Below, in pieces: positions 14,649-15,806 of a stretch of 32,000 nucleotides of DNA. Position 1 is the first letter of the stretch. Every line of letters starts with the position of its first letter. The stretch comes from Candidatus Harpocratesius repetitus (GTDB taxonomy: Archaea > Asgardarchaeota > Lokiarchaeia > Sigyniarchaeales > Promethearchaeaceae): positions 630,001 through 662,000 of the forward strand of contig JAIZWK010000001.1 in the NCBI GenBank assembly GCA_021498095.1. Reading direction: 5' to 3'. The notes beneath the pieces are model-generated. The model had not been told where the DNA came from and searched no databases. It worked only from the letters and a program-made list of their open reading frames with translations. A program made the translations under genes and the position numbers.

Positions 14649-15806
14649 TTAAGATATTTTTTTTGTTTCATCGCCCTGAATACGTTGTGTCGCTTGAGCA
14701 TCTCCACGAATTGTGCAATCGGCGATTTCTTCAGCTTGCGAGAAGACATTCGCATATTTTTTGTTAATATCTTGATTTAATTTAAATTTTGATGAATCAT
14801 TAGAAAATTGAATTTTAATATCTTTTGAATCAGTTAGACCTTCACCAAAATCGAACTCCAAGCGAAGTAAATTGGTAGGGACATCTAATTGAATTTTATT
14901 AGGAGAAATTATTACTTTCCCTTTAATAAGGATTTGGTAGGTATCTCCTGCTTCAAAACTACGTAAATAAGTCTGAAATTCTGTTTTTGAAACTTTTTTA
15001 AAAGGCATTCTAATAACTGTGGGTTTATATTGAGCTGCATCATCTAATTGCAATTCTTGGTGATAGCTTTTAATTATAATTTGAGGTTGGCTGAATGCAA
15101 TACGAACAGTTTGTTCTGTAGCAATAATCATTTTGGTTTTCATTTCTTCTTCGCTTTCCGCGAAGATATATTTACCTGTAGAACGCTTTGCTAGTTCGTA
15201 CATTAAATATACATTATGATCTCCTAAAGCACCCACAGTGTCAATTGATGATTTATATTCAAGTGCTTCCTTCGCTAACAGAAAATACTTATTATAATTA
15301 GGATCATTCTCATTGCCACTTTCTAATTCTACATCAGTAGGATCACCATCGCTAAGAAGGAAGATTTTCTTGATTTTAAGAGAATTATCACTTTTTACAT
15401 ATTTCTTCATTAATTCTATTGCCTTTTTCAAAGCAGAATAAAGTGCTGTAGTTCCTCTGTCGCTGATTTTTTGTATCTCATCAATTATTTTTTTCCTAGA
15501 GTTGTCTGTAATTCGTTCATTTGTTATAATTTCATGAATATTTGTCTCGAAAGTAATAAGTGTGAAAATTGTTCCTTCAGGTAATATATTTATCTGCTCA
15601 ATTAAGGACTGTTTTGCATTATCTAATGGTTTTCCAGACATGCTTCCTGAAATATCTAAAAGCCAAATGCCATAAAACGCTTCAGGAGGAATATTTTTAT
15701 CTGGAAGAACCTTGATATCCAATGCAATTGGCACTTCATTATTTGATGGAATAGGAATACAAATTGCAGATTGTAAAATATTTATATATGGTTGTTTTTT
15801 TGACAT
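14649..15806 (-). CDS. von Willebrand factor A (vWA) domain protein
   Basis: MIDAS DISGSMS, GTTALYSAL, LLSDGDPT and later TVGALG. Followed by a beta-rich C-terminal domain and a short tail ending TQRIQGDETKKIS. Confidence 0.92.
   Translation of the reverse strand: MSKKQPYINILQSAICIPIPSNNEVPIALDIKVLPDKNIPPEAFYGIWLLDISGSMSGKPLDNAKQSLIEQINILPEGTIFTLITFETNIHEIITNERITDNSRKKIIDEIQKISDRGTTALYSALKKAIELMKKYVKSDNSLKIKKIFLLSDGDPTDVELESGNENDPNYNKYFLLAKEALEYKSSIDTVGALGDHNVYLMYELAKRSTGKYIFAESEEEMKTKMIIATEQTVRIAFSQPQIIIKSYHQELQLDDAAQYKPTVIRMPFKKVSKTEFQTYLRSFEAGDTYQILIKGKVIISPNKIQLDVPTNLLRLEFDFGEGLTDSKDIKIQFSNDSSKFKLNQDINKKYANVFSQAEEIADCTIRGDAQATQRIQGDETKKIS

Follow-up and report, generated by a model that had tools for sequence, protein, structure and literature searches.

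The conserved threonine tail of an ArnB-like vWA protein in Lokiarchaeia as a plausible phospho-docking element

Why would a protein with a von Willebrand factor A (vWA) domain keep three threonines at fixed positions in its last two dozen residues? This question is raised by a locus in a 32,000-nucleotide stretch of the genome of the Lokiarchaeon Candidatus Harpocratesius repetitus (contig JAIZWK010000001.1, positions 630,001 to 662,000; hereafter the window), where a vWA gene ends in ...EEIADCTIRGDAQATQRIQGDETKKIS*, that is, in TIRGDAQA-TQRI-QGDE-TKKI-S, with nucleotides 14649-14690 holding the stop codon plus T373-S385. The original prediction had picked out two T-x-x-I motifs in this tail and proposed that the tail is a kinase substrate which, once phosphorylated, recruits neighbouring FHA proteins. 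Both motifs are present as described, TQRI at residues 373-376 and TKKI at 381-384, and the proposed role is partly supported by the analysis reported here. We consider a phospho-docking role plausible: the most likely reading, to which we assign a probability of about one half, is that the tail works in docking as ArnB's does, under control by phosphorylation, and that the ArnA-like FHA protein next to it is the reader. The vWA gene would then encode the Asgard (Lokiarchaeial) counterpart of Sulfolobus ArnB, a cytosolic scaffold, and the segment T365...T373-QRI-QGDE-T381-KKI would be a conserved linear regulatory motif, the estimate applying to these two claims jointly.

A search of 5.8 billion proteins returned 73 close homologues, all the named ones from Promethearchaeota, Candidatus Harpocratesius and Lokiarchaeum ossiferum among them, and the C-termini of these homologues are almost superimposable. 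Conservation was assessed in an alignment of 66 full-length Lokiarchaeial homologues (36-95% identity). No other 12-mer of the protein is as conserved as residues 372-383 (ATQRIQGDETKK), with a mean top-residue frequency of 0.92 compared to 0.67 overall, and I361, T365, Q377, D379, E380 and T381 are invariant. Position 373 is threonine in 65 of the 66 sequences and position 381 in every one; position 376 is always I, V or L, position 384 is I, L, V or M in 60, and D369, D379 and E380 are conserved at 98-100%. Six of the protein's 23 threonines are at least 95% conserved, and these include the last three, T365, T373 and T381 (98-100%), which follow one another at intervals of eight residues. 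Conservation of the tail among orthologues, which the original prediction had expected, is thus strongly borne out. Serine never replaces any of these three threonines, while the other threonine positions swap freely with serine. FHA domains select phosphothreonine over phosphoserine, and the strict absence of serine fits this selectivity. The FHA ligand motif pT-x-x-(I/L/V/D), read as a threonine with a hydrophobic residue conserved at +3, is matched within Lokiarchaeia at both T373/376 and T381/384, and a scan of 185,579 species genomes for the pattern T[QI][RKM][IV]QGDET located such tails only in Promethearchaeota, two of them, P. syntrophicum MK-D1 and L. ossiferum, being in culture. Two other readings of the same residues were tried and rejected: a COPI-type di-lysine signal (KKxx-COOH) in ETKKIS, since one to four residues follow the lysines among orthologues and the model is without a membrane segment, and an RGD motif in TIRGD, since G368 is Asn in a paralogue group of 55% identity.

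To what kind of protein does this tail belong? The top sequence match in the PDB is 8s05_A, the ArnB chain of the S. acidocaldarius ArnAB complex, at 4.9e-15 when the sequence is used alone and 1.7e-21 when a profile is used; a further match is 5a8j, a paralogue of ArnB, and vWA is the sole domain matched by Pfam. The AlphaFold2 model, with a predicted local distance difference test score (pLDDT) of 92.6, is laid out as N-terminal strands, followed by vWA domain and beta-sandwich, two helices (345-366 and 370-377) and finally an eight-residue coil. Foldseek searched with this model ranked ArnB first, and VIA alignment to 8s05_A gave a Z of 31.9 with a root-mean-square deviation of 2.5 Å over 323 aligned residues at 22% identity, running practically end to end (residues 4-383 of the model on 2-382 of the chain). 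The same tripartite fold is shared by vWA2/ArnE (5a8j, Z 28.5) and by a Catenulispora acidiphila vWA protein (4fx5, Z 32.9), for which we know of no function. The predicted architecture is thus that of ArnB, with the vWA domain inserted in an eight-stranded beta-sandwich and followed by a C-terminal helical region. The MIDAS, or metal-ion-dependent adhesion site, is intact, D51, S53, S55, T120 and D153 all being invariant in 32 sequences (alignment A1).

What such a C-terminus can do is known from the Sulfolobus protein. ArnB carries threonines near its C-terminus that ArnC/ArnD phosphorylate and that, phosphorylated by ArnC, are then bound by ArnA through its FHA domain; FHA-dependent ArnA binding requires these sites (PMC6509490, PMC12852372). 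In S. acidocaldarius every identified ArnB phosphorylation site falls within the C-terminal domain, and deletion of this domain abolished in vitro phosphorylation by ArnC and strongly reduced ArnA binding (PMC6509490). T353, T363 and T375 become phosphorylated within 5 minutes, and the T353A/T354A and T359A/T363A substitutions each weaken the FHA-dependent pull-down after short phosphorylation; T371-T375, buried at the vWA-domain interface, are exposed through sequential phosphorylation, and the Zn finger of ArnA separately binds ArnB's beta-sandwich and C-terminal domain (PMC12852372). ArnE, which does not bind ArnA, is without T353 and T363 (PMC6509490, PMC12852372). For comparison we assembled ArnB 319-377 from a HMMER printout (319-373) and the peptides in PMC6509490, which makes the residue-level alignment of the tails approximate. 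The assembled C-terminus, ...LIETT-RRI-SESIETT-RRI-G-TVEQT-RKI-SKEIT-SEV-T-KK, carries Ile at +3 after two basic residues in T344-RRI, T354-RRI-G and T363-RKI and Val at +3 in T371-SEV, and its T375 is followed by KK. This T-basic-basic-Ile arrangement is the pattern of T373-QRI and T381-KKI, so that the T-x-x-I idea fits threonine sites mapped by experiment in the closest known homologue. In both proteins the threonine cluster (TRRI, TRRI-G, TRKI and T-KK in ArnB; TQRI and TKKI here) lies within ~20 residues of the end; unlike ArnB, with its eight or more scattered threonines, the Lokiarchaeial tail has three at a fixed eight-residue spacing.

A reader for such a tail is encoded next door. 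The adjacent Zn-ribbon-FHA protein matches Pfam FHA (PF00498) at 2e-9 with 38.1 bits against a cut-off of 20.7, its Zn-ribbon matches being weak, and among 27 homologues the phosphothreonine-contact residues G187-R188, S209, H217 and S234-T235-N236-G237-T238 are invariant and R210 nearly so, which supports reading of the tail by this neighbour. Downstream of the vWA gene, all on one strand, come the genes for the Zn-ribbon-FHA protein, three more Zn-ribbon proteins (Z436, Z547 and Z291), a Hanks-type kinase, a PP2C phosphatase and two PPP-family phosphatases (Table 1). This nine-gene order is conserved in seven Lokiarchaeial genomes, those of L. ossiferum and six more including P. syntrophicum MK-D1. 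The Zn-ribbon-FHA gene adjoins the vWA gene in all seven loci and also in remote relatives, and remote relatives with IQGxET[KR] or SEVTK tails adjoin Zn-ribbon-FHA, kinase and PP2C genes. We take this shared neighbourhood as support for the phospho-docking reading.

Table 1. Coordinates, in window positions, of the vWA gene, its tail and the genes of the downstream cluster
Feature	Position	Strand	Remarks
vWA gene, ArnB-like	14649-15806	minus	385-aa open reading frame, ATG start; Pfam VWA 5e-12
MIDAS DxSxS (D51, S53, S55)	15642-15656	minus	T120 and D153 complete the site
C-terminal helices 345-366, 370-377	14676-14774	minus	DSSP on the AlphaFold2 model; in place of the four-helix ArnB_C bundle
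T365, third invariant Thr	14712-14714	minus	8 residues before T373; Thr in 66/66
Tail motif T373-S385, TQRI-QGDE-TKKI-S	14652-14690	minus	candidate phospho-acceptors T373, T381
ArnA-like Zn-ribbon-FHA protein	13719-14561	minus	Zn ribbon ~14484-14549; SPFPP-repeat linker; FHA ~13722-14069
Zn-ribbon protein Z436	12353-13663	minus	Cys-rich; probable degenerate FHA-like C-terminus
Zn-ribbon protein Z547	10688-12331	minus	Cys-rich; FHA-likeness doubtful; no Pfam match
Cys-rich Zn-ribbon protein Z291	9756-10631	minus	no FHA signal; no Pfam match
Hanks-type Ser/Thr kinase	8410-9768	minus	Pfam Pkinase 1e-24, ~8878-9696; FHA-like C-terminal domain (probable) ~8413-8817
PP2C phosphatase	7536-8369	minus	Pfam PP2C_2 2e-11; syntenic
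PPP-family phosphatase, proximal	6402-7523	minus	Pfam Metallophos 3e-18
PPP-family phosphatase, distal	5153-6364	minus	N-terminal extension 6209-6313 with T18-QKI-G, T41-QMI, T49-QRI-GET

By analogy with ArnA/ArnB, we infer that tail threonines are phosphorylated, that the kinase of the cluster is responsible and that an FHA domain binds the product. Let us suppose that the Hanks kinase phosphorylates T381 and/or T373. The modification perhaps would loosen the docked terminal helix, and the phosphothreonines thus presented might be read by the adjacent ArnA-like Zn-ribbon-FHA protein, possibly also by the FHA-like domain of the kinase itself, until the PP2C and PPP phosphatases reset the switch.

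The original prediction also spoke of an array of FHA proteins, of which a part stands. One protein, the neighbour described above, is an FHA protein by Pfam; the C-termini of Z436 and of the kinase are probably FHA-like; for Z547 the likeness is doubtful and Z291 gives no signal. Searching the last third of Z436, Z547, Z291 and the kinase with Pfam FHA gave no match. Profile-profile comparison (hhalign) to the FHA1 domain gave P values of 1e-4 for Z436 (probability 57%) and 5e-4 for Z547 (in an alignment spanning 49 columns), with 3e-3 for the C-terminal part of the kinase and 0.34 for Z291. With language-model (Atlas) features, 74 of 100 matches of Z436 are FHA and 95 of 100 for the kinase C-terminus are FHA sets, Z547 remaining ambiguous. 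The AlphaFold2 model of the kinase C-terminus, built from six sequences, is of low confidence (pLDDT 60); Foldseek with it returned nothing at E up to 0.001, and its listed PDB matches, weak at E 2e-3 to 0.1, are almost all FHA-domain chains. A remote metagenomic cluster on JGI contig Ga0209986_10003036 has a matching layout, with genes for vWA, FHA, Zn-ribbon-FHA, PrsW-FHA-FHA and DUF4234-FHA proteins, a kinase (weak FHA) and PP2C, two of the FHA proteins carrying membrane-associated domains. There Pfam detects an FHA domain at each position, as would be expected if the proteins of the window were decayed versions. Outside the cluster, the Harpocratesius genome encodes three more FHA proteins at Pfam level. 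Complex prediction for the unphosphorylated vWA protein (A1) with residues 160-280 of the FHA neighbour (A2), run without controls, scored 0.00 against a mark of 0.32; the tool folds chains that lack phosphate, and this score bears on binding in neither direction.

The motif is not confined to the scaffold. No open reading frame of the genome except that of the distal PPP phosphatase has multiple TQ[RKM]I, and in this phosphatase three such motifs fall in a 35-residue span (18-52) of the N-terminal extension; all three are kept as T-x-x-I/L in 8-9 of 9 orthologues of 58-79% identity, and its TQRIGET is nearly identical to TQRIQGDET of the vWA tail. The activation loop of the kinase carries T210-V-I-I at 9139-9141, the T-x-x-I being kept in six of six sequences. 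A motif common to scaffold, eraser and writer is what one would expect of a common reader or writer, and is hard to attribute to the folding needs of the vWA protein alone. As a more daring extension, which we offer as speculation and think rather unlikely, T-[QRK]-[RK]-I-(Q)-G-(D)-E-T might be the shared docking code of a self-contained Asgard phospho-module, present in the vWA tail and three times in the phosphatase, with T-x-x-I in the kinase loop. One FHA reader, or the FHA-like domain of the kinase, could then unite writer, eraser and scaffold in a phosphorylation-dependent order, working as a timer on an ArnB/Sec23-type platform and perhaps also controlling unlinked vWA paralogues in trans. 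We note as a side observation that the proximal PPP paralogue is without the three motifs of the distal one.

Several observations weigh against the tail being a phospho-regulated docking element, at least in its simplest form. T-x-x-I is a motif of low information: among the 2,878 open reading frames of at least 150 aa that make up a crude proteome of the genome, the probability of Ile at +3 given Thr is 0.095. Only three of these reading frames have at least two T-x-x-I within their last 14 residues. T-x-x-I by itself is thus weak, and it is by virtue of its conservation that the tail goes beyond chance. Even the longer pattern T[QRK][RKM][IL]Q?G occurs in 20 reading frames genome-wide, so that the motif alone cannot pick out substrates. 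The ArnB_C domain (PF18677), a four-helix bundle in which the pair alpha8-alpha9 is elongated, is absent from the vWA protein as judged by its sequence: Pfam gave no match at E up to 10 with either the whole protein or its C-terminal 139 aa, and nothing above cut-off anywhere in the genome, the S. acidocaldarius control being positive. Unlike in ArnB, therefore, all that is left of the C-terminal bundle in the model is a long helix, a short one and the eight-residue tail. Residues 373-380 are modelled as ordered (pLDDT ~91) rather than as a free tail, and this segment, I376 included, may owe its conservation to packing; before T373 could be read, the segment would have to unfold locally, as has been proposed for ArnB T371-T375. 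Given the invariant MIDAS, the invariant D379-E380 might also serve as a ligand mimic.

The wider family adds to these concerns. At 2815068-2816222 of the same genome lies a 55%-identical vWA paralogue ending in ...TQRIQGDETKKIS, flanked by a 326-aa gene, which is unrelated, and a small one of 132 aa; genes for FHA proteins, kinases or phosphatases are missing for ~14 kb downstream and 8 kb upstream, and paralogue groups in other genomes have the same tail and likewise unrelated neighbours. The tail is thus not tied to the cluster in cis. The vWA genes with their paralogues, the FHA gene and the distal PPP gene are found in the same four genera of the family and were not seen in the remaining three, which are represented by four genomes 76-91% complete, a co-occurrence that fits action in trans and that is based on few independent lineages and on incomplete metagenome-assembled genomes. 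In remote relatives, which keep an IQGxET[KR] core and an equivalent of T365 as T-x-[KRY]-[GNHD], the first threonine is shifted by one residue (LTKIQGRETRVG, GTLIQDFGQETQRG), the Thr-to-Ile spacing is altered (TKIQG, TLIQ) and the last threonine stands in ETRVG or ETQRG, with Gly or Ser at +3; one of them retains TQRYQGEETKRL. With this spacing lost, the pT+3 reading would be valid within Lokiarchaeia only, and the universal feature of these tails is not T-x-x-I but an acidic-Thr-basic arrangement near the C-terminus, comparable to SEVT-KK of ArnB and to the metagenomic SEVTKV.

How do other explanations of the tail fare against the same evidence? The tail might be a constitutive structural or docking element without any phosphorylation, either packing on the vWA/beta-sandwich body or contributing to a surface on which the four neighbours dock with their Zn ribbons. 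The model agrees with such a role over most of the segment, residues 361-370 and 371-380 having mean pLDDT of 92 and 91 and lying largely in the two helices, and for unphosphorylated ArnB the Zn finger is enough for binding, which takes place at the beta-sandwich/C-terminal domain (PMC12852372). Paralogues away from the cluster retain the tail, and the IQG core is kept even where the T-x-x-I spacing is lost. Yet T381 sits in the low-confidence terminal block (381-385, mean pLDDT 64) and is nevertheless invariant and never serine, the motif recurs in the phosphatase extension, which a purely structural role in the vWA protein leaves unexplained, and the homologous threonine sites of ArnB are phosphorylated (PMC6509490, PMC12852372). 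We regard a structural role alone as unlikely. To fall back on the DNA itself is harder still. A promoter, ribosome-binding site or terminator for the downstream FHA gene, overlapping the 3' end of the vWA gene, might be imagined given that the tail lies ~90 nt upstream of the next gene's start. Across 18 genes, however, the tail codons vary synonymously (ACA/ACC/ACG/ACT, GGA/GGC/GGG/GGT, GAT/GAC); free variation at third-codon positions with the amino acids fixed points to selection on the peptide rather than on an overlapping DNA signal, and unlinked paralogues with other downstream genes keep the same peptide. The idea of such an element is effectively refuted, and we give it practically no weight.

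Two further alternatives, each of which we think distinctly improbable, keep the peptide as the selected unit and change its role. In one, D379-E380, with D369, would mimic a MIDAS ligand, the tail plugging the MIDAS of its own or of a second copy, with auto-inhibition or head-to-tail assembly as the outcome and the threonines possibly tuning it. The five MIDAS residues are invariant and the three acidic residues almost so, and ligands of integrin-type MIDAS present an acidic residue in (I/L)-(D/E)-(T/S/V) motifs. The ArnB authors themselves proposed that the ArnB MIDAS binds a partner glutamate (PMC6509490); the corresponding ArnB segment is, however, described at the interface of the C-terminal and vWA domains and not in the MIDAS (PMC12852372), and the never-serine rule at the threonines would be left unexplained. 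In the other, the tail would be phosphorylated with an output different from recruitment of the FHA neighbour: a conformational or stability switch, or reading by a different protein, be it one of the three unlinked FHA proteins or a partner without FHA. The existence of those FHA proteins and of tail-bearing paralogues unlinked to the cluster speaks for it, as does the mutual dependence of ArnA and ArnB levels in Sulfolobus (PMC12852372). Against it stands the tight adjacency of the vWA and Zn-ribbon-FHA genes, conserved from Lokiarchaeia to remote relatives.

Taking the phospho-docking reading up again, the nearest known system is that of ArnB (Saci_1211) and ArnA (Saci_1210) in the archaellum regulatory network of S. 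acidocaldarius (PDB 8s05). The likeness extends from the vWA domain in a beta-sandwich with C-terminal helices and the intact MIDAS to the adjacent Zn-ribbon-linker-FHA gene and the presence of a Hanks kinase and phosphatases in the system. Unlike ArnA/ArnB, the present locus has four Zn-ribbon proteins, a kinase with an FHA-like domain (probably) of its own, a PP2C and two PPPs in one operon-like cluster, one phosphatase bears the same motif as the scaffold, and the host is a Lokiarchaeon. To the depositors of the ArnAB structure, the complex is the Sec23/24 core's archaeal orthologue (8s05 title; PMC12852372). Our model also resembles the trunk, beta-sandwich and helical core of Sec23/Sec24 of the COPII inner coat (Foldseek E ~1e-12; VIA Z ~21-22 over model residues 8-382). 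This likeness is at the level of fold only, at 10-14% identity, and the full Sec23/Sec24 domain set is not found: in contrast to those proteins of ~700-900 aa with fused Zn finger and gelsolin domains, the vWA protein has 385 aa, a separately encoded Zn ribbon and no gelsolin domain. In bacterial Hanks systems (Bdellovibrio DgcB, whose FHA domain binds the phosphorylated tail of DgcB itself, 6hc0/6hc1; M. tuberculosis GarA and EmbR) an FHA domain reads phosphothreonine in a short peptide at the end of a partner or of the protein itself. Such bacterial entries are among the weak matches (E 8e-3 to 0.1) of the low-confidence model of the kinase C-terminus, the scaffolds being unrelated. The 2026 ArnAB paper mentions, of Asgard archaea, only structural relatives in Heimdallarchaeota (PMC12852372), and our full-text literature searches returned no paper describing an Asgard ArnA/ArnB-type cluster or the vWA tail.

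Some side observations accompany these genes. The linker of the Zn-ribbon-FHA protein (14124-14393) consists of SPFPP(P) repeats whose copy number and spacing are highly variable in the 27 homologues, with the PFP core conserved. Upstream of the vWA gene, at 16441-20158, synteny with L. ossiferum continues through an AAA_18 kinase-like gene, a gene for a 508-aa multi-pass membrane protein and one for a TPR/MIT-like repeat protein, so that the conserved neighbourhood is larger than the nine phospho-signalling genes. In contigs of a Promethearchaeum sp. metagenome-assembled genome we came across orphan fragments corresponding to the last 10-58 residues of a vWA paralogue, with upstream stop codons and without a vWA reading frame (L043 807-914, 7001-7150, 11023-11049 and 13431-13517; L041 7001-7174; L042 1350-1520). 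Their consensus is ...LNQNLLKQFNxLLGxVEEITEFTIRGxxEGTQRIQGDETQKF*. Four such decaying copies lie in one 14-kb stretch, in intergenic positions behind genes of unrelated function, among them hydrolase, ABC ATPase and radical SAM genes. We saw no integrase, and the window's own genome has no such fragments; perhaps the 3' end of the gene has given rise to a small repeat.

Lastly, what does this locus mean for Asgard archaea? To our knowledge, no FHA-based phospho-switch of archaea has been studied better than ArnA/ArnB. An expanded version of this module is kept by Lokiarchaeia, the cultured P. syntrophicum MK-D1 and L. ossiferum included, in which the many phosphorylation sites of ArnB would have been condensed to a nearly invariant 13-residue motif that recurs on the module's own phosphatase. 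If phosphorylation of the tail holds true, this would be a first defined kinase-substrate-reader triad in Asgard archaea, and the phospho-docking reading is directly testable in the two cultured Asgard archaea.

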